From positions 1 through 45,210 of IMG/VR virus record IMGVR_UViG_2711768053_000020: a stretch of DNA of 45,210 nt; one strand, 5' to 3'. Source of the stretch: a virus (Duplodnaviria > Heunggongvirae > Uroviricota > Caudoviricetes). Shown here piece after piece: positions 3,426 through 34,062 of this stretch. Numbering within the stretch: the first letter of the stretch is position 1; each line of letters starts with the position of its first letter. The notes beneath the pieces are model-generated. The model saw only the letters and a list, made by a program, of their open reading frames with translations, ran no database searches and was not told the origin of the DNA. The position numbers and the translations under genes are program-made.

Positions 3426-4700
3426 TCACCTGACAACGGGTAGATCAGAGAATCGGGTGGTGTAACGTGGAGAAAGCATTTCCCGTTTCATCTGCCACTG
3501 CTGCTGGATACCCTGTCCTGCAAAATACAGCGTCCCCCTCCCGCCTTTGGCATTGAGGTGATCCAGCACTTCCATCAGTTTCTCACTGCCCGGGCGCGGC
3601 GCGTTATCATCGAACAAGTTGAGCTGGGCCACGCCCTGACTGAAGAAATCACCCAACATCACCCCGGCTTTCTGATACCGATATCCGTCTTGCCATATGG
3701 CGTCCAGACAGCGGATGGCTGCACTGATGATATCCCGACTGTCCTGCGTAGGCGTCAGAAGCTTCACGGAGGCATTATTGCCATAATAGGGCTCGTTCAG
3801 TGCGAACGGGCTGGTCTTCACAAACGCCGAGATAAAACGGCAATACTGGTGCTCGCCACGCAGTTTCTCTGCCGCCCGCGAGGCATAGCTGCAGATCGCC
3901 TGGCGCATCTCTTCATACTCCGTGATACGACCGCTAAAAGAGCGGGAACAGATAATTTCCTGTTTCACTGGCGCGAATTCTTCCAGTGCCAGGCAGGGTT
4001 CTCCGCGTAACTCACGCACCGTTCGCTCCAGCACGACATTAAAATGTTTACGGATAAAACGGATGTCCGTATCAGCGAGTTGCAGTACGGTCTTGATCCC
4101 CATCGCCTCCAGTTTTTTCGAAATACGCCGACCGATGCCCCAGACTTCATCAACCGGCAGCGCGGCCATCAGTTTGCGCTGGCGATCGACACTGGACAGG
4201 TCTACCACCCCGCCCGTCTGCCGCTGCCATTGTTTGGCCGCGTGGTTGGCCAGCTTGGCCAGCGTCTTGGTCTGGGCAATGCCAACACCCACTGTCAGAT
4301 GCGTTCGCTGCAGAACAGTAGCACGGATTTCACGGCCAAAATCAGTCAGATCACGACAGTTACGTACACCAGTGAGGTCACAAAATGCCTCGTCTATCGA
4401 GTAAATTTCACAGCGCGGCGACATTTCTTCCAGCGTGGTCATCACCCGGTTAGACATATCCGCATACAGCTCATAGTTGCTGCTGAAGCACACCACCCCA
4501 TGGCGCCGGAAAAAGTCCTTCTGCCTGAAGTACGGCTCACCCATTTTGATACCCAGTTTCTTTGCCTCTGTGCTGCGGGCAATAACACAACCGTCATTGT
4601 TGGAAAGCACCACAACCGGCCTACCTTTGAGATCCGGGCGAAATACAGTTTCACAGGAGGCATAGAACGAGTTCACATCACACAACGCGTACATGATCAA
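3426..4700 (-). CDS. umuC: DNA polymerase V catalytic subunit UmuC (Y-family polymerase)
   Basis: 424 aa; N-terminus [20 protein letters not shown]...[15 protein letters not shown] and colinear similarity along the whole length to enterobacterial UmuC; start overlaps the umuD stop (ATGA). Confidence 0.95.
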
Positions 4701-5119
4701 CCCGTCGATTTCACGATGAACGTCACCACACCAAAAACATCGAGCGTTTCTTCGCTCCCGATGATGATAGGCGACCAGGCGCGGTTTTCAGGGTTAAGCT
4801 GGACAGTTGGCCATAACTGTAGGCGCTTAACGGTAAATTCCCCGTCCACCGCAGCAATAACGATATCGCCGTGCTCTGCCTTGCGTGAACTGTCCACTAC
4901 CAGTAAATCGCCTTCGCCGATCCCGGCATCAATCATCGAGTCACCAGATGCCTTAACGAAGTACGTGGCGCTGGGGTGTTGTATCAGTAGCTCGTTAAGA
5001 TCGATACGCTGTTCAACGTAGTCCTGAGCAGGGCTTGGGAAACCACAGGGTACAAGATCGCCATAGAGTGGAAGCGGCTGCACTGCACGCAACCCGGAGG
5101 GAGTGAAAAACTGCATCAT
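4697..5119 (-). CDS. umuD: UmuD (LexA-like self-cleaving SOS mutagenesis protein)
   Basis: Contains [18 protein letters not shown] and [17 protein letters not shown]...[17 protein letters not shown] motifs of UmuD. The track ORF begins at a TTG (5131); the tandem ATG ATG at 5114-5119 is the more likely start. Confidence 0.9.
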
Positions 5120-5135
5120 AATCACCGTCAATTAA

Positions 5136-5155
5136 TACTGATATTATATACAGTA
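5136..5155 (-). promoter_or_regulatory. LexA (SOS) box upstream of umuD
   Basis: TACTGATATTATATACAGTA has the CTG-N10-CAG SOS-box architecture and sits about 17 bp upstream of the umuD start. Confidence 0.8.
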
Positions 5156-5223
5156 GTTTTTATTTAAACGGAGATCAATGGCATTAGCCACCATCAGTCA
5201 TCATCGTCGCATAACTCAATGAT

Positions 5224-5775
5224 TTACCTGGTTGCCGGAAATTTTTTATATAGCGTCGATATCCCAACATCGTAAATTAATGCCACACGCTGTCGTGATT
5301 CACCTGCTGCAACCAACCTTCCTGCCTGCGCCCACTGTTCATCAGTTAGCTTTGATCGACGCCCACCTATTCGCCCTTCTTCACGAGCCGCAGCCAATCC
5401 CGCCCTGGTACGTTCGACTATCAGCTCCCTTTCCATTTCGGCAAGTGCGCCCATGACATGGAAGAAAAAGCGTCCCATTGGTGAAGACGTATCTATGCTG
5501 TCGGTCAGGCTGCGAAAGTTAATACCCTTTTCCCGAAGCTCCTCCACCAAAACGACAAGATGCCGCATGCTGCGACCGAGTCGATCCAGTTTCCAGACCA
5601 CCAGCGTGTCACCTGCCGATAATGTCCTGAGCAGCTTTTTCAGTCCTGGTCTGTCGGACTTTGTACCGCTTATCTTGTCTTCAAAAATCAGCTCACATCC
5701 TGCACAGTTCAGCGCATTACGTTGTAGATCTGTGTTCTGGTCATTTGTTGACACACGTACATAGCCAATAAGCAT
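5224..5775 (-). CDS. serine recombinase, DNA invertase of the Pin/Gin/Hin/Cin family
   Basis: MLIGYVRVSTNDQNTDLQRNAL N-terminus with catalytic Ser, VVWKLDRLGRS and SPMGRFFFHVMGALAEMERELIVERT motifs, C-terminal HTH; likely start is the internal Met (MLIGYV). Confidence 0.9.
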   Translation of the reverse strand: MLIGYVRVSTNDQNTDLQRNALNCAGCELIFEDKISGTKSDRPGLKKLLRTLSAGDTLVVWKLDRLGRSMRHLVVLVEELREKGINFRSLTDSIDTSSPMGRFFFHVMGALAEMERELIVERTRAGLAAAREEGRIGGRRSKLTDEQWAQAGRLVAAGESRQRVALIYDVGISTLYKKFPATR

Positions 5776-5801
5776 GGTAGATCTCCCTGACAAAAGCAGG
5801 A

Positions 5802-6338
5802 ATGATGCCATTTGCTCGTTATTTCTGTATTTTCATAAACGTTGGTTTGGGAGAAGGCTCAGCATTACCTGTTGGGGTGCCTGTTCCGTGGCCTTCAGAG
5901 ACACCTCCAACAGGCTGGCTGAAATGCAACGGGGCGGCTTTTTCTGCTGAAGAATACCCGGAACTGGCAAAGGCTTACCCGACAAATAAATTGCCTGATT
6001 TACGAGGTGAATTTATTCGTGGCTGGGATGATGAACGTGGTGTGGATAGTGGGCGAACTCTGCTTTCAGCGCAAGGAGATGCTATTCGAAACATTACTGG
6101 CGGTTTTGGTCAGTTGCGCGTAAACAGCGAAATTAATGCAATTGTCGATGTTCAAAGCGTGAGTGGGGCTTTTTACGGAGGTACCTCCGTCCGGAATAAC
6201 ATCAATGTATCTATGACATACGCTAATGACCGAAAAATCCGACAAGATGTTCACTTCTCGGCGGCAAATGTTGTTCCAACAGCAAATGAAAATCGTCCAC
6301 GTAACATCGCCTTTAATTATATTGTGAGGGCCGCATGA
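5802..6338 (+). CDS. alternative tail-fibre C-terminal segment (silent orientation, promoterless exon)
   Basis: Frame reads through the crossover site (…NVGLGEGSALP…) so that inversion would fuse it to the constant N-terminus of the tail-fibre gene; WPSETPPTGWLKCNGAAFSAEEYPELAKAYP looks like a tail-fibre receptor-binding tip. Confidence 0.6.
   Translation: MMPFARYFCIFINVGLGEGSALPVGVPVPWPSETPPTGWLKCNGAAFSAEEYPELAKAYPTNKLPDLRGEFIRGWDDERGVDSGRTLLSAQGDAIRNITGGFGQLRVNSEINAIVDVQSVSGAFYGGTSVRNNINVSMTYANDRKIRQDVHFSAANVVPTANENRPRNIAFNYIVRAA
5830..5855. repeat. invertase crossover site (gix/hix-like 26-bp site), copy 1
   Basis: TTTTCATAAACGTTGGTTTGGGAGAA; the half-site TTGGTTTGGGAGAA is the reverse complement of the half-site inside the tail-fibre gene at 7799-7824. 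Confidence 0.6.
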
Positions 6339-6940
6339 TGAATAAAGCCGTATTGAATAGTGAACTCATTGCCATAAAAGCGGGAGACATTATCATTTAT
6401 AATTATGATGGTGAAACGCGGGAATATATTTCTACATCAACTGAATATCTCGCTGTCGGCGTCGGTATCCCGGCATGTTCCTGTTTGGATGCACCAGGTA
6501 CACATAAAGCTGGTTATGCAATCTGTCGCTCTGTAGATTTAAATTCATGGGAATATGTGCCAGACCATCGCGGTGAAGTTGTCTATAGTACCGAAACGGG
6601 AGATACCAAAGAAATCGCAGTTCCGGGTGATTATCCTGAAAATACAACCACTATCGCCCCGTTAACGCCATACGATGAATGGGATGGTGAGAAATGGGTG
6701 ACCGATACTGAAGCACAGCATAGCGCCGCAGTAGGCGCGGCAGAAGCACAGCGTCAGTCACTGATTGATACTGCAATGGCTTCCATTAGTCTGATTCAAC
6801 TGAAATTGCAGGCCGGGCGGAAGCTGACGCAGACAGAAAACACCCGACTTAACGCTGTGCTGGATTACATTGACGCGGTGACGGCAACAGATACCAGCAC
6901 CGCGCCGGACGTCATCTGGCCTGAACTGCCGGAGGCGTAG
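6335..6940 (+). CDS. tail fibre assembly protein (alternative copy, U'-like)
   Basis: 201 aa, follows the alternative fibre segment with a 4-bp overlap; C-terminal ...DYIDAVTATDTSTAPDVIWPELPEA resembles Tfa chaperones. Confidence 0.75.
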   Translation: MMNKAVLNSELIAIKAGDIIIYNYDGETREYISTSTEYLAVGVGIPACSCLDAPGTHKAGYAICRSVDLNSWEYVPDHRGEVVYSTETGDTKEIAVPGDYPENTTTIAPLTPYDEWDGEKWVTDTEAQHSAAVGAAEAQRQSLIDTAMASISLIQLKLQAGRKLTQTENTRLNAVLDYIDAVTATDTSTAPDVIWPELPEA

Positions 6941-7355
6941 GCCATTCAATATCTGGCGCACCGGAAGTATCAACCAGTTCCAGTGCGTCCAGATAATCCA
7001 GCCATAAATTATATTGTTCCAGCTCGTCACCTTTCAGACGACCAATAGCAGCTTTGCCAGGCCACTGATGGGTATTGATGTAGGTATTGACTTCTGAAAC
7101 CAAAGATATTTTTTTCATTTCAGCCGTCAACACCTCATCCTCTTTTGAAGGTGGTGGGGAATTAATCCATACTGGCCGTCCTGAACTGTCAGCGCCAATT
7201 TCTTTCCCTTCTGGATGCAGACCAAGAAATTGCTCATATGTTTCTCTGGTAATTTCAATAACATCATCAGGAAGCGTTCCCGCATCCTCATATTCTGGAA
7301 ACAATTCTTGCAGATAAAAACTTTTACTCCCGGGTGAAAAGAATACTGAGTTCAT
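6912..7355 (-). CDS. tail fibre assembly protein (expressed copy, U-like)
   Basis: 147 aa directly downstream of the tail-fibre gene; C-terminal ...DYLDALELVDTSGAPDIEWPTPP parallels the other Tfa copy. Confidence 0.8.
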   Translation of the reverse strand: MNSVFFSPGSKSFYLQELFPEYEDAGTLPDDVIEITRETYEQFLGLHPEGKEIGADSSGRPVWINSPPPSKEDEVLTAEMKKISLVSEVNTYINTHQWPGKAAIGRLKGDELEQYNLWLDYLDALELVDTSGAPDIEWPTPPAVQAR

Positions 7356-7357
7356 TA

Positions 7358-8101
7358 TTACCGTCCAATGATTAACGCTGAGACGCTGGTATCTGAAGGA
7401 AAGGCTGCATTCAGTGGTTTGTCGACTTTGAACACAATCGTATTATTCCCCCTGACAGCGGCAAAAGAACAAACCGCAGTCGCGTATGAACCTGTAATAT
7501 TACTGGATACACCACCATAAGCTGTTGTTGATACCAGAGGGACAACGCCCAGCACCTTATTAGGAAATACAAAGGGCAATGTGGCTGTGGCAATATAAGA
7601 CTTATTAGAGCCTGTGATGGCATAAGCATTATCAGTCATTCCATTCATCGCCACCGGGCCGCTTATACTTACAGTAACCATCTGAATGATTAGCCCGTCA
7701 GGTTGACGAATCACAAAATTTCCATTGCCACCAGTAACCGTCCAGAAAGACATATCAGGGATTTGGTTTTCCCCGTTGCCCACATTCCGTTTTGCCGCTT
7801 CTCCCAAACCAAGGTTTTCGAGAGCTGTTTTCACCGTGCCATCCGATTTGATATCGCCAAACGGATTCTTGCGGCTTAACAGCAGCGCACGAAGCGCGGT
7901 AAGCAGCTGGTCATGCCGCCCCTTCTCCAGGCTGGCACCGGATGCCTCCACAACGCTGCAAAGCTCCTCCTGCAACATGTCAAAGTAGTCATCATCCAGA
8001 TCGGTGGCAGGCGTGCCGGTCTGGGGGTTACCACGGGTAAAACCGTTCTTACCCGCGCCGAACTTATCCTTCTGCGCGGTTTTCGTGTCTATACGATGCA
8101 T
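7358..8101 (-). CDS. tail fibre protein (constant N-terminus plus currently expressed variable C-terminus)
   Basis: 247 aa ending the tail operon, immediately after the baseplate genes; crossover site embedded at residues about 94-101. Confidence 0.8.
7799..7824. repeat. invertase crossover site, copy 2 (inside tail-fibre gene)
   Basis: TTCTCCCAAACCAAGGTTTTCGAGAG in inverted orientation relative to 5830-5855; falls at codons about 94-101 (LGLGE) of the tail-fibre gene. Confidence 0.6.
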
Positions 8102-31309: not shown

Positions 31310-31632
31310 ACTTTCAGCTCCCTCTCATGTAACCAGTGGGCTGCACGCAGCCTGGCGTTTTCCTCACCGGCAAGCAGTGAGCGGATAATCCCGACCGCCT
31401 CGCTGTCGTCGTCCTTCACCGCGGTATGAAGCGTGATGCCCCGGGCCACGCCACGCTTTATCGTGATGACGCCTTTTTTCTCCAGTGCGCGAAGATGCTC
31501 CACCGCTGCATTCACTGAACGGTATCCCAGCATGGTTGCCACCTCCTGATTGGTTGGCGGGAAACCACGTTCTTTCTGATAAGAAATCAGCATATCCAGC
31601 ACCTGCTGCTGGCATTGAGTTAACGTCGTCAT
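31306..31632 (-). CDS. LexA-type DNA-binding domain protein (no peptidase domain)
   Basis: 108 aa; LTQCQQQVLDMLISYQKERGFPPTNQEVATMLGYRSVNAAVEHLRALEKKGVI resembles the LexA N-terminal winged-helix domain. Confidence 0.6.
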   Translation of the reverse strand: MTTLTQCQQQVLDMLISYQKERGFPPTNQEVATMLGYRSVNAAVEHLRALEKKGVITIKRGVARGITLHTAVKDDDSEAVGIIRSLLAGEENARLRAAHWLHERELKV

Positions 31633-32282
31633 GCCGCCATCTCCCTGACCAGTTTTTCTTCCTGCTGGCGAACCTGCGCCAGAAAGGCCTCACCACATGC
31701 CTCAAGTTCATCGCGCCCGATGTAGCTGATTGCCGGTCCCTTCCAGGTCTTGTCGAAAATAGCAATAGCACCAGCGAAGAAAGCGCCTGTCGGCACCTGC
31801 TTCTCATCCTTCGGGATAAACCAGGCAGGCAGTTCAAAACCAATACGCCCGCGAATAAAAGCAATATGATCTGCATCTTCCGGCCACCACACTTCGCTGG
31901 TGGCAGCTTTGATCAGGAAAACATAGCGCCCGCCTTTATCACGCATGGCACTGGCATGCTTCATGATGTAACGCATGCCGGTGATGTATTGCCCCTCATG
32001 CTGACTGGCGCGGCTGTATGGGGGATTACCAAAGGCAGCACCTTTAAGCTCCGCAAGGCGTTCTGACCAGTCATGCGCCAGCGCGTTGTCTTCCGCCGTG
32101 TAATACGCAGCACATTTGGCGTTATCACCGTCAGTGAACAGATCCAGAACAAACGGGCCAAACAGGGTGTTAATTCCCCAGAAAATGTTGTCCGGCGTGC
32201 GCCACTGATCGCCCACTTCCTTCAGTTCATGGGCTGGTTTGTTCCGCAGTTCCACCAGCGCCTGGCAATATTTATTACTCAT
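31629..32282 (-). CDS. phage DNA N6-adenine methyltransferase (Dam-like)
   Basis: Contains the NPPY catalytic motif (FGNPPYS); start placed at MSNKYCQ, which overlaps the upstream stop (TAATG). Confidence 0.8.
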   Translation of the reverse strand: MSNKYCQALVELRNKPAHELKEVGDQWRTPDNIFWGINTLFGPFVLDLFTDGDNAKCAAYYTAEDNALAHDWSERLAELKGAAFGNPPYSRASQHEGQYITGMRYIMKHASAMRDKGGRYVFLIKAATSEVWWPEDADHIAFIRGRIGFELPAWFIPKDEKQVPTGAFFAGAIAIFDKTWKGPAISYIGRDELEACGEAFLAQVRQQEEKLVREMAA

Positions 32283-32776
32283 TAAGCCCCCACGTAATTC
32301 CCTGAGAGATACCACTCTTCACCTGATGCAGCCCGCTTACTGCTTTTCCGTAAACACCGTTCACGACGCGCCAGAAAATTGTTTCGTTCTGGCTGGGAGT
32401 GGCTTTCACGGAATACCGCCATCCACACCGTTGCAGCACGACGGTATAAGCCCCTGGACTCCAGTTCTTCCGCCTGGCGGGTCAGGCACAAAATCACCCG
32501 CGGGTCGTTAGTGCCGACATAGAAATTGCGCACAGGTCTGGTTTCACGAACTGGTTGTGGTTCCAGATCCTGCGCTCTCTCAGTCAGGCGCGGGAAATGT
32601 CTGTGTGTATCTCCTTCACAACGGTGAGCCACACGCCCACTCTGACGTAACTTGCTTGCTGACTGCAGAACGCGCTGCCGTGAGTAACCTGCAAAAGCAT
32701 CCGCAATGTCTCCGGAAGTACAGCCCGGATGGGCTTCAATGAATTTCTGAACGTCATTCAAAAGACTCATGCTCAC
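32282..32776 (-). CDS. hypothetical phage early protein (164 aa)
   Basis: Translationally coupled between the replication initiator and the methyltransferase; no family recognised. Confidence 0.5.
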   Translation of the reverse strand: MSMSLLNDVQKFIEAHPGCTSGDIADAFAGYSRQRVLQSASKLRQSGRVAHRCEGDTHRHFPRLTERAQDLEPQPVRETRPVRNFYVGTNDPRVILCLTRQAEELESRGLYRRAATVWMAVFRESHSQPERNNFLARRERCLRKSSKRAASGEEWYLSGNYVGA

Positions 32777-33714
32777 CCCCTGAATCCTGCCGGGATCTGG
32801 CTGTAGTCCACATTGTCGTAACTGGCTTTGAAGTACGGGTCTTCGCGTTTTTCTGTGTACGTGCTGACGGACGGCGATAAGCGCAGGGAAAGCTCATCCC
32901 ATTTTTCCCGCAGCTTCGACGGGCTGAGCACGTTACGGCACCAGAACGGATCGCGGCTGACGCGGCTGTACATCTCGCAGATTTGTTTGTGAGTACGACC
33001 ATCCTGCACACACATCAGGCGAATTTCGTTTGCCCAGGCTGTCCAGTTCGGTTCTTTGGGACGAACCACCTCGCCGTCACATTCGGCAGCCTGCTCGTAC
33101 AGGGCGATGATTTTTTTCCAGAACCACTGTGCGCAGGTCAAATCATCCTGCGTTCCCCACTGGCGCTTTTTAGGGCTGAATACAACCGCATCAGGATGGC
33201 GAGTTAAAAAATCCTGTTCATCCGTCTGCGTGTCCGGTTGCGAAGCGTCCGGACGAGAAGGTTTTTTATCTGACGGATCATGTTTTGATTTTACTGACGG
33301 ATCCCCGCCAGATTCTGACGGGTGAAAACCCGCTTTTTTGCCAGATTTCGACGCATCAAATTTTGACGGGTCAGATTTTGATGCGTCAGATTTTGACGGG
33401 TCAGAATCTGACAGTTGAGAAAATGCCGCTGCCTGAAGCTTCGCAACGTTAAGCTGATAAACATTCGACGCATTGCGGTTACCCTGGCGACGCGCCTTAC
33501 GCGTTAACCAGCCTTCTGCTTCCAGCCGTGCGATAGCCGTCCTGACGGTACTCATCCCCGCGCCAATCTGACGGGCAATAGTTTCAATTGATGGCCAGCA
33601 CACACCTTCGTCATTACTGAAATCAGCCAGGCGGGCCATAATTGCCACGCTGGATAATTTCATGCCTGATGCAGCGCAACCATCCCATACATAGCCGGTT
33701 AATTTAGTGCTCAT
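32773..33714 (-). CDS. replication initiation protein (O-like, N-terminal HTH) containing ori iterons
   Basis: 313 aa with N-terminal wHTH-like region (…IETIARQIGAGMSTVRTAIARLEAEGWL…) and a central pentapeptide-repeat tract (SDSDPSKSDASKSDPSKFDASKS) encoded by tandem DNA repeats. Confidence 0.7.
   Translation of the reverse strand: MSTKLTGYVWDGCAASGMKLSSVAIMARLADFSNDEGVCWPSIETIARQIGAGMSTVRTAIARLEAEGWLTRKARRQGNRNASNVYQLNVAKLQAAAFSQLSDSDPSKSDASKSDPSKFDASKSGKKAGFHPSESGGDPSVKSKHDPSDKKPSRPDASQPDTQTDEQDFLTRHPDAVVFSPKKRQWGTQDDLTCAQWFWKKIIALYEQAAECDGEVVRPKEPNWTAWANEIRLMCVQDGRTHKQICEMYSRVSRDPFWCRNVLSPSKLREKWDELSLRLSPSVSTYTEKREDPYFKASYDNVDYSQIPAGFRG
33268..33414. repeat. iteron array (putative phage origin of replication) inside the initiator gene
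   Basis: About eight direct repeats sharing the core TGACGG (tCAGAtTtTGACGgg), six of them at 15-16-bp spacing from 33308 to 33414, preceded by two CTGACGGATC copies in a T-rich stretch. Confidence 0.55.
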
Positions 33715-33723
33715 GACCGACCT

Positions 33724-34062
33724 CTATTTCCCTGAATTTACGACGAAACTGTTCGAGCGGGCTGAAGCACTCATGCTCATAGCCTTCGCGGAGGTAGATA
33801 ACTCGTTGTGTTTCCGGCTCCCAACGAATGACTCTGACGGGCACTCCGTAGTGATCTTTGAACCAGCGGTTAACTTGTCGCAAAGGACTGTCTCCTTCTG
33901 CCGGTTGAAATCACCCACAGCCCACTCAGCAAAGCTGTGGGTTACAATTTCCCTGTCACCTGGTACATTAACTGCATAGCAATACTCCACCTTCGCTTTT
34001 CCACCCGGTACAGGAAGCGCAATCAGTTGCGAGCGACGGTAGTGTGTTGTTAAACTGTTCAT
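33724..34062 (-). CDS. hypothetical early protein (112 aa)
   Basis: Start overlaps the upstream stop (ATGA) in the early-right operon; contains an internal 8-bp inverted repeat (33915-33941), so coding status is uncertain. Confidence 0.4.

Follow-up and report, generated by a model that had tools for sequence, protein, structure and literature searches.

An SfII/SfIV-like lambdoid prophage with a candidate replication origin in its initiator gene

Phages lambda and phi80 carry their origins inside the genes for their own initiators, gene O (oriλ) and gene 15, respectively (PMC7466680, PMC3349717; phi80 record), and the SPP1 initiator gp38 binds direct repeats inside its own gene 38 (oriL), beside an A+T-rich unwinding element (PMC6316719). 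Here we analyze the same kind of arrangement in a 45,210-nucleotide (nt) stretch of virus DNA (IMG/VR record IMGVR_UViG_2711768053_000020, positions 1 to 45,210; hereafter the window), in which palindromic repeats lie within a gene for an O-like replication initiator. An earlier note on this stretch had proposed a likely phage origin at the repeats, a proposal supported by selection acting at the DNA level, by modular inheritance, by a position matching those in lambda and phi80 and by the repeats of sister initiators. We consider it likely that positions 33255-33416 are the replication origin of an SfII/SfIV-like lambdoid prophage, situated inside the linker-coding part of its own initiator gene. 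The lambda-like placement of an origin inside the initiator gene is a well-known arrangement, found here in a different initiator family. The locus has features of its own: an in-frame 15-bp phasing that makes a peptide repeat, a 63-bp core with two Dam sites, and a "solo" initiator with a DnaT-like tail.

In lambda, oriλ comprises four 18-bp iterons and a 38-bp A+T-rich region within gene O, whose product has an N-terminal DNA-binding domain and a C-terminal P-binding domain. The window gene resembles it in having dyad-symmetric repeats in the middle of the gene, between two domains, with the least stable stretch next in the direction of transcription, and in lying downstream of cro and cII. 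When we profiled lambda O as a control, the annotated iterons occupied codons 117-144 and were followed by the gene's least stable 40-mer (z = 3.0); in phi80 gene 15, four annotated gp15 sites spaced by 20/21/21 bp occupied codons 122-147, again followed by the least stable 40-mer (z = 2.7). The repeats of the window gene are at codons 102-149, and its least stable 40-mer is at a nearly equal distance from the start codon. The parallel that the earlier note drew with the lambda origin therefore holds for both the in-gene place of the annotated iterons and the unstable segment that comes after them. The two loci differ in the N-terminal domain, which is Phage_rep_O in lambda and HTH_36 here, and in the sites, which are 18 bp long in lambda, spaced by 20/24/23 bp and read in three frames, whereas here they are 11-bp palindromes at exactly 15 bp in one frame. 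Lambda also has a stronger A+T-rich stretch (78%) and a P gene; the window locus has two conserved GATC sites in its melting-prone part and no P gene after the initiator.

Phage phi80 gp15 is the closest characterized relative of the window protein. The C-terminal domains are homologous (BLASTP against gp15 amino acids [aa] 176-275: 36% identity over 112 aligned columns, E 6e-25), and in phi80 the sites are followed by a 68% A+T stretch, comparable to the 70% found here. Unlike the window gene, phi80 gene 15 encodes a Phage_rep_O N-terminal domain, its sites are TTCCCGAAAACGGGAA-like, and a P-like gene 14 is present, for which the window module has no counterpart. No match of the window initiator to Phage_rep_O (PF04492) was obtained at E ≤ 0.01, its best match being HTH_36, while phi80 gp15 matches PF04492 at E 6e-25 in a like scan; the window protein thus falls outside the lambda O N-terminal family. 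SPP1 gp38 is likened to the window protein by arrangement, not by alignment: the origin lies within the initiator gene, and the C-terminal domain of the window protein matches PHROG families named "replisome organizer" and "DnaD-like". SPP1 differs in infecting a Gram-positive host and in having a dedicated loader (gp39), a helicase (gp40) and a second origin (oriR).

Plasmid iteron origins of the RepA/RepE/Pi type have 17-22-bp direct repeats at about two helical turns and a Rep protein with tandem winged helices. The window locus is not of this type, having 11-bp palindromes, 15-bp phasing and, in the structure model, one winged helix. The sole Rep-family profile match was to the RP-C N-terminal domain (17.2 bits, below the 24.4-bit cut-off). 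A minimal replicon built on this initiator was not found in the plasmid collection, where the matches were prophages in large replicons, chromosomes mislabelled as plasmids and e14-like circles of about 15 kb with a truncated gene.

Palindromic repeats in the initiator linker

Tandem Repeats Finder (TRF) reported positions 33342-33405 at a period of 15 (4.3 copies, 81% matches) and also at a period of 30 (88% matches). A repeat search placed copies at 33342, 33357, 33372 and 33387, exactly 15 bp apart, with a more distant copy at 33294. The unit is best described by the 11-bp palindrome TCARAWTYTGR, for which five exact sites and one degenerate site are listed in Table 1. The exact sites give nine matches over both strands, compared to 0.86 expected in 45 kb, and none of 100 shuffles reached nine. 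Outside 33308-33411 the 45-kb window has no further match, so there is no second cluster. Across 55 relatives of the gene, the motif is confined to gene nt 297-449, and core 6, written as YCAGAATCTGG, is exact in 48 of 53. The six cores and two half-site copies all fall within a stretch of the protein with a predicted local distance difference test score (pLDDT) below 50.

These results refine the repeats as the earlier note had described them. It counted six repeats at 15-16 bp; the phased units number five, their spacing is exactly 15 bp, and the sixth full copy is set apart by 33 bp. It took TGACGG as the core of about eight repeats. TGACGG occurs exactly five times in 33271-33399, always on the + strand, and about eight copies are reached if CGACGC, TGATGC and TGACAG are included, so the count stands. 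As a marker, however, TGACGG is poor and was rejected as the defining motif, with 54 matches window-wide compared to 20 expected and unconserved copies outside the linker. The copies at 33543 and 33569, within the stretch coding for the N-terminal domain, persist in no more than 2 and 8 of the 55 relatives and are therefore attributed to chance. A T-rich stretch with two further copies, said to precede the array, does exist at 33261-33303 but, given that the gene is encoded on the minus strand, is transcribed after the array. The open reading frame (ORF) in which the note had placed the repeats, as O-like, runs from 32773 to 33714 on the minus strand and matches PHROG 391. The linker does encode a five-residue repeat, (S-D-x-S-K)n, whose period results from the 15-bp period of the DNA. 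It is not a pentapeptide-repeat protein of the A(D/N)LXX beta-helix type: the Pfam scan gave no Pentapeptide family, and the stretch is predicted to be disordered (pLDDT 29-39).

Table 1. Features of the initiator gene and its repeat region (window positions unless a locus is named)
Feature	Position	Strand	Description or basis
Tandem array, five 15-bp units	33339..33416	.	Coding-strand unit TCT GAC NNN TCA AAA = S-D-x-S-K; TRF, matrix scan
Palindromic core 1	33401..33411	.	TCAGAATCTGA; perfect 5+1+5 palindrome
Palindromic core 2	33386..33396	.	TCAGATTTTGA
Palindromic core 3	33371..33381	.	TCAGATTTTGA
Palindromic core 4	33356..33366	.	TCAAATTTTGA; perfect palindrome
Degenerate core 5	33341..33351	.	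CCAGATTTCGA; in register, 15 bp from core 4
Palindromic core 6	33308..33318	.	CCAGATTCTGA, coding strand TCAGAATCTGG; 33 bp downstream
Nucleotide-conserved block, 63 bp	33268..33330	.	Coding strand GGTTTTCACCCGTCAGAATCTGGCGGGGATCCGTCAGTAAAATCAAAACATGATCCGTCAGAT; contains core 6 and two GATCCGTCAG copies
GATCCGTCAG copy with conserved Dam site	33294..33303	-	GATC at 33300-33303
GATCCGTCAG copy with conserved Dam site	33270..33279	-	GATC at 33276-33279
Least stable 40-mer of the gene, candidate DNA-unwinding element	33255..33294	.	Gene nt 420-459, codons 140-153; 70% A+T; nearest-neighbor profile, z = 3.1
Replication initiator gene, 313 aa	32773..33714	-	ORF list; Pfam HTH_36, PHROG 391, nt identity
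N-terminal winged-helix domain coding region, presumed iteron reader	33421..33714	-	aa 1-98; AlphaFold (AF2) model, Foldseek
Disordered interdomain linker coding region, holds all repeats	33223..33411	-	aa 102-164; pLDDT below 50 across 102-164
Helical C-terminal domain coding region	32875..33219	-	aa 166-280; phi80 gp15 homology, pLDDT 85-94 over most, PHROG
C-terminal tail SQIPAGFRG, DnaT-like	32776..32802	-	8/9 residues identical to the end of K-12 DnaT
Conserved block of sister initiators	L089:1811-1851, L090:1811-1851		Equivalent place in L086, L087, L088, L091, L092

We also looked for other elements in and around the repeats. No DnaA boxes (TTWTNCACA) are near the region, the two window matches both being far off, and no promoter-like site was found in 33000-33800. 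A sub-threshold Rfam match to mir-5880 (30.7 bits, compared to a gathering score of 97) is caused by the palindromic repeats and was rejected as an RNA element. Between the array and core 6, the + (non-coding) strand has a small G+C-rich hairpin with a run of T after it (CGGGTGAAAACCCG CTTTTTTGCC; 33319-33332). Terminator-like hairpins such as this one occur in the number expected by chance, and its coding strand is part of the conserved GGTTTTCACCCG.

Constraint on the DNA of the linker

To obtain relatives, one genome per species was scanned with an alignment of the N-terminal domain, which yielded 80 Enterobacterales prophage loci, 55 of them non-redundant. Mean pairwise nt identity among the 55 is 0.73 in the N-terminal domain, where third positions of invariant 4-fold codons carry 0.47 bit and are essentially saturated. 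A matrix scan of the same genes in all frames returned 366 hits, 361 of which are in frame, with 4-10 units per gene and 235 spacings of 15 nt. Of the third codon positions of the unit, position 3 holds T in 94% and position 12 holds A in 92%; the middle triplet is free. Serine codons are position-specific, serine being encoded by TCT at the first residue of the unit and by TCA at the fourth.

Codon usage computed independently of the motif gives the same picture. TCA and TCT together account for 84% of serine codons in the linker and 35% in the rest of the gene, and AGC for 3.6% and 29%; the corresponding values are 97% and 66% for AAA (Lys), 90% and 28% for TTT (Phe), and 70% and 43% for GAC (Asp). 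As GAC is favored for Asp, the bias is not plain A+T richness.

We considered whether the repeats are a feature of the protein only, namely a low-complexity Ser/Asp/Lys/Pro spacer grown by replication slippage. The units are in frame (361/366) and encode a predicted disordered stretch, and linker length differs among relatives through gain or loss of units, with copy number among close relatives shifting mainly by 5-aa steps, as slippage would produce. We give this explanation hardly any weight, because synonymous positions of the linker are invariant in 53 lineages that are otherwise saturated. The amino acid at unit position 1 varies (S, F, I, P, T, N), and the third base is still T in 94% of units. 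The palindromic symmetry of the unit would be meaningless for a protein. In addition, the same DNA is read in another frame, as an unrelated peptide, in three relatives (phiP27, L163 and L179). The motif concerned, TTT(S)ACCC(G/T)TCAGAWTCTG (~20 nt), gives FDPSDSG and VLTLQNLD in two frames in phiP27 (L084, gene L17); other-frame peptides include VFTRQNLT, and L179 gives VLTRQNLG with compensating indels. These frame switches are natural frame-shift experiments in which the DNA was kept and the peptide was not.

An overlapping gene was rejected as the source of the synonymous constraint, as none of the other frames stays open over the whole linker in every lineage; a +1 ORF over the linker has an upstream ATG in only 26 of 53. 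The invariant synonymous sites, the position-specific codons and the motif read in another frame indicate that selection acts on the DNA, and the (S-D-x-S-K)n peptide repeat is a by-product of 15-bp sites that are in phase with the frame of a disordered linker.

Conserved block, modularity and array size

The 63-bp block at 33268-33330 is the probable core of the origin. Third codon positions in it are invariant (2.0 bit) at 11 of 21 codons across the 53 lineages, among them those of TTT, SAC, YCA, TCT, GAT, CCG, TCA, GTA and TCA. For 4-fold-degenerate codons, 5 of 9 are invariant, and the mean is 1.64 bit compared to 0.45 bit in the N-terminal domain (Mann-Whitney p = 1e-5). The codons GAT CCG TCA GTA of the GATCCGTCAG copy at 33294 are invariant in all 53 save for the middle base of TCA. 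In the direction of transcription, the sixth palindrome is closely followed by the start of the candidate unwinding element.

Both GATC sites of the block are found in 46 of 53 relatives. GATC is not enriched overall (11 sites in L094 compared to 11.8 expected), and only the two block sites are conserved. We also observed that the Asp codon at these sites is always GAT, although the array favors GAC, and that the module has its own Dam-type methyltransferase gene (31629-32315, minus strand). SfIV was reported to be without a Dam gene (PMC3851460). Control of the origin by Dam methylation is possible on this pattern.

Next to their conservation, the repeats show a modular inheritance. Across the 55 relatives, this N-terminal domain and its repeats are found together on at least four unrelated C-terminal domains (Phg_2220_C-like in 36, phi80-like in 9-11, "VLxHFN" in 5 and "EYSPEFE" in 1). 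The mEp460_4F5 protein has the C-terminal domain of the window protein with another N-terminal domain and lacks such repeats; nt similarity to the window ends at 33272, at the edge of the repeats. Similarity to phiNP spans 33236-33713, which corresponds to the N-terminal domain plus the repeats. The DNA-binding domain and the repeats thus constitute one exchangeable specificity cassette, and because the C-terminal domain is shared with phi80 and the N-terminal domain is not, the window gene looks like a phi80-type gene in which the cassette of binding domain plus sites was replaced.

Sister initiators with the same Pfam domain and gene position (SfV, ST64B, mEp460, Min27, ZF40 and Vibrio D62) have palindromic repeats of their own in the same place, three to five in the linker, followed by a short nt-conserved block. 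They differ from the window gene in their N-terminal domains, which are 39-45% identical to it, and in their repeats, which are phage-specific, ~16-21 bp long and spaced by 21/24 nt. Their conserved block consists of two to three copies of GAACCAGTCA where the window has GATCCGTCAG. In this sister subfamily (ST64B, mEp460, SF6, Min27, RAH1, ZF40 and Vibrio D62), the repeats are followed by AGAACCAGTCAC-TCTTTT-GAACCAGTCAA, encoding the peptide PRTSHSFEPVKEP. Phages of Vibrio, Pectobacterium, Klebsiella, Salmonella and E. coli agree at the synonymous positions of this sister block, a rare AGA codon among them. The resemblance of this block to the GATCCGTCAG copies suggests a core element common to the whole family.

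A cis element need not be an origin. The repeats could instead be operators, used for autoregulation or for blocking of the early operon by the initiator or another phage or host protein, or a packaging, partition or recombination site. Constraint at the DNA level does not by itself identify a function, the tendency of the adjacent stretch to melt is only moderate, most winged-helix proteins of this fold regulate transcription, and the gene is flanked by PerC-like and CII-like regulators. We regard this explanation as quite unlikely, given that the repeats are inherited with the N-terminal domain of the initiator and not with the neighboring genes, that they occupy the same in-gene place as the annotated iterons of lambda and phi80 and are likewise followed by the gene's least stable segment, that each sister initiator has its own repeats in the same place, and that the 45-kb window lacks a second motif cluster that could be the real origin. 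It also overlaps in part with the origin that we propose, since the sites of iteron systems commonly serve both autoregulation and origin function.

Several observations weigh against reading 33255-33416 as an origin read by the initiator. The constraint on the DNA marks a cis element without specifying either an origin role or the initiator as its reader. Lambda and phi80 have 18-19-bp sites at 20-24 bp, which palindromes of 11 bp every 15 bp (~1.4 helical turns) do not resemble. The stretch at 33255-33294 is only within the top 6-8% least stable window-wide, and at 70% its A+T content is below the 78% of lambda. A P-like helicase-loader gene was not found directly downstream of the initiator, where the genes are PerC-like, Dam methyltransferase, LexA-like and RusA. 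The SfIV paper, the SfII GenBank record and full-text searches yielded no description of this origin (older subscription papers being outside reach). Finally, the number of 15-bp units ranges from zero to about ten among relatives. An E. coli gene of 282 aa on one contig (P0017) has no tandem units, and a Salmonella variant (L178/P0034; at least 128 contigs) with intact module synteny has only two cores, abutting the block. Because such variants keep two units or none, either most of the array is dispensable or the short-array prophages are defective.

The same variation raises the possibility that the origin is here but that its essential part is the block at 33268-33330, with core 6, two GATC half-sites and the A+T-rich stretch, the array being a variable accessory made of extra, weaker initiator sites that tune firing, titrate the initiator or mediate incompatibility. 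Conservation over most of the block is far higher than in the array units, and every length variant examined keeps the block except for its first codons, including the two-core Salmonella variant. For lambda it has been reported that two iterons together with the A+T-rich region are enough for unwinding and for replication in vitro (PMC7466680). Against this, 4-7 cores are retained in most lineages, implying that several of them are under selection, and the short-array variants may be defective prophages. We consider this division into core and accessory a serious possibility, if short of an even chance.

Array copy number is polymorphic among close relatives (P0015-P0017, P0034, P0047, P0049), with about ten 15-bp units in P0047. 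A scan of IMG/VR with the whole protein as query returned 80 loci at 98% identity or more, all of 313 aa, and was uninformative on this variation.

Initiator protein, proposed mechanism and implications

The 313-aa protein consists of an N-terminal winged helix, a disordered linker, a helical C-terminal domain and a short C-terminal tail. In the Pfam scan, HTH_36 (PF13730) matched aa 23-70 (E 4e-11, 42.9 bits compared to a cut-off of 25), and PHROG 391 "replication initiation O-like" spans the full length (E 6e-135). The C-terminal half also matches the PHROG families "DnaD-like helicase loader" and "replisome organizer". At the nt level, the whole gene is 98.0-99.4% identical to "O protein / primosomal protein" genes in 14 phage records that cover the entire gene; the counterparts in the Shigella phages SfII and SfIV and the Escherichia phage Kati are at 98.9-99.4%. 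SfIV, an isolated and characterized phage, has the gene at 98.9% identity and carries the repeat element.

In the AlphaFold model, which is based on 57 homologues, the N-terminal domain has helices and a beta wing with a block-mean pLDDT of 62-86. Foldseek with this domain returned only generic MarR/ArsR-type winged helices, and a search for solved structures by sequence gave only weak MarR-type matches. Winged helices of the MarR/ArsR type typically bind palindromes as dimers. The C-terminal domain is presumed to bring in factors of the replisome or for helicase loading.

The initiator ends in SQIPAGFRG, nine residues of which eight are identical to those at the end of E. coli K-12 DnaT (SQIPPGFRG). 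A GFR[GST] tail is found in 35 of the 55 relatives, across three C-terminal domain types, suggesting that it is a portable short motif that may contact the host primosome or a helicase-loading partner. The 3′ end of the gene (76 nt) is its sole part with 96-97% nt identity to SfV, mEp460, cdtI and Stx2 phages. This shared end with its DnaT-like tail is probably the reason for annotations as "primosomal protein I".

The early operon is lambdoid, with a cI-like repressor gene on the opposite strand followed by cro-like, CII-like, DUF4222, initiator, PerC-like, Dam, LexA-like DNA-binding and RusA genes. Homologues have other neighbors: a DnaC-like gene and a helicase gene in phiP27, and a DnaB-like helicase gene in ZF40. 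In the deposited phiP27 genome (L181, AJ298298.1; region 4335-7538), gene L17 is of the HTH_36 type, is annotated as "unknown" and is 60% identical to the N-terminal domain of the window protein. It is the initiator-like gene between the repressor region and Q, with the DnaC-like and helicase genes coming next. For a phage called "P27", which may be phiP27, an O protein and an origin of the lambda type with six iterons have been described (PMC7466680).

Truncated relatives were also observed. In two E. coli chromosomes (L147 and L171, near position 1.2 Mb), the first 79 codons are 99% identical to those of the window gene and are fused to unrelated sequence in a 455-aa ORF. A 15.2-kb circle listed as a plasmid (L175, OR902851.1) has an N-terminal match of 80% identity in an ORF truncated at ~113 aa, along with mcrA, tfaE, an invertase gene and a fragment of icd. 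These features match the defective prophage e14 and its ymfN fusion, which would be a relative that has lost the repeats and the C-terminal domain.

For the proposed origin at 33255-33416, we infer which protein binds the repeats, where melting occurs and how the helicase is loaded as follows. The N-terminal winged helix, probably as a dimer, would bind the 11-bp palindromes, five at 15-bp phasing and the sixth 33 bp downstream. The initiator probably also binds the two GATCCGTCAG copies, giving a multi-protomer complex like the lambda O-some. This complex, together with transcription from the early rightward promoter through the gene, would lead to melting of 33255-33294. The phi80-gp15-like C-terminal domain and the DnaT-like tail would then bring in the host helicase-loading machinery, in a module without a phage P-like loader. 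A more specific version combines the invariant block as the licensing core of a Dam-gated origin, an array of 0-10 copies that tunes firing or incompatibility, and a SQIPAGFRG tail that mimics the DnaT C-terminus, so that the "solo" initiator plugs into the host primosome and DnaB-DnaC loading without a phage loader. We put this forward as a speculative combination that is on the whole unlikely to hold. If it were true, the GAACCAGTCA-repeat core in the Vibrio, Pectobacterium, Klebsiella and Salmonella sisters would point to a common mechanism across the HTH_36 initiator family.

The general picture of lambdoid replication is unchanged by these results. They provide a precise, testable origin map for prophages of a type very common in E. 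coli, Shigella and Salmonella, to which the Shigella serotype-converting phages SfII and SfIV belong; the origin of these two is unannotated in searchable records and papers. The locus is also a clean natural case of double coding, well documented by synonymous sites and frame shifts, in which an array of binding sites dictates a repeated peptide in the disordered linker of the protein presumed to read it. A replication-specificity type is defined by the N-terminal domain together with its repeats, which may be of use for prophage typing, for predicting incompatibility or cross-activation between prophages in the same cell, and for phage-derived replicons.

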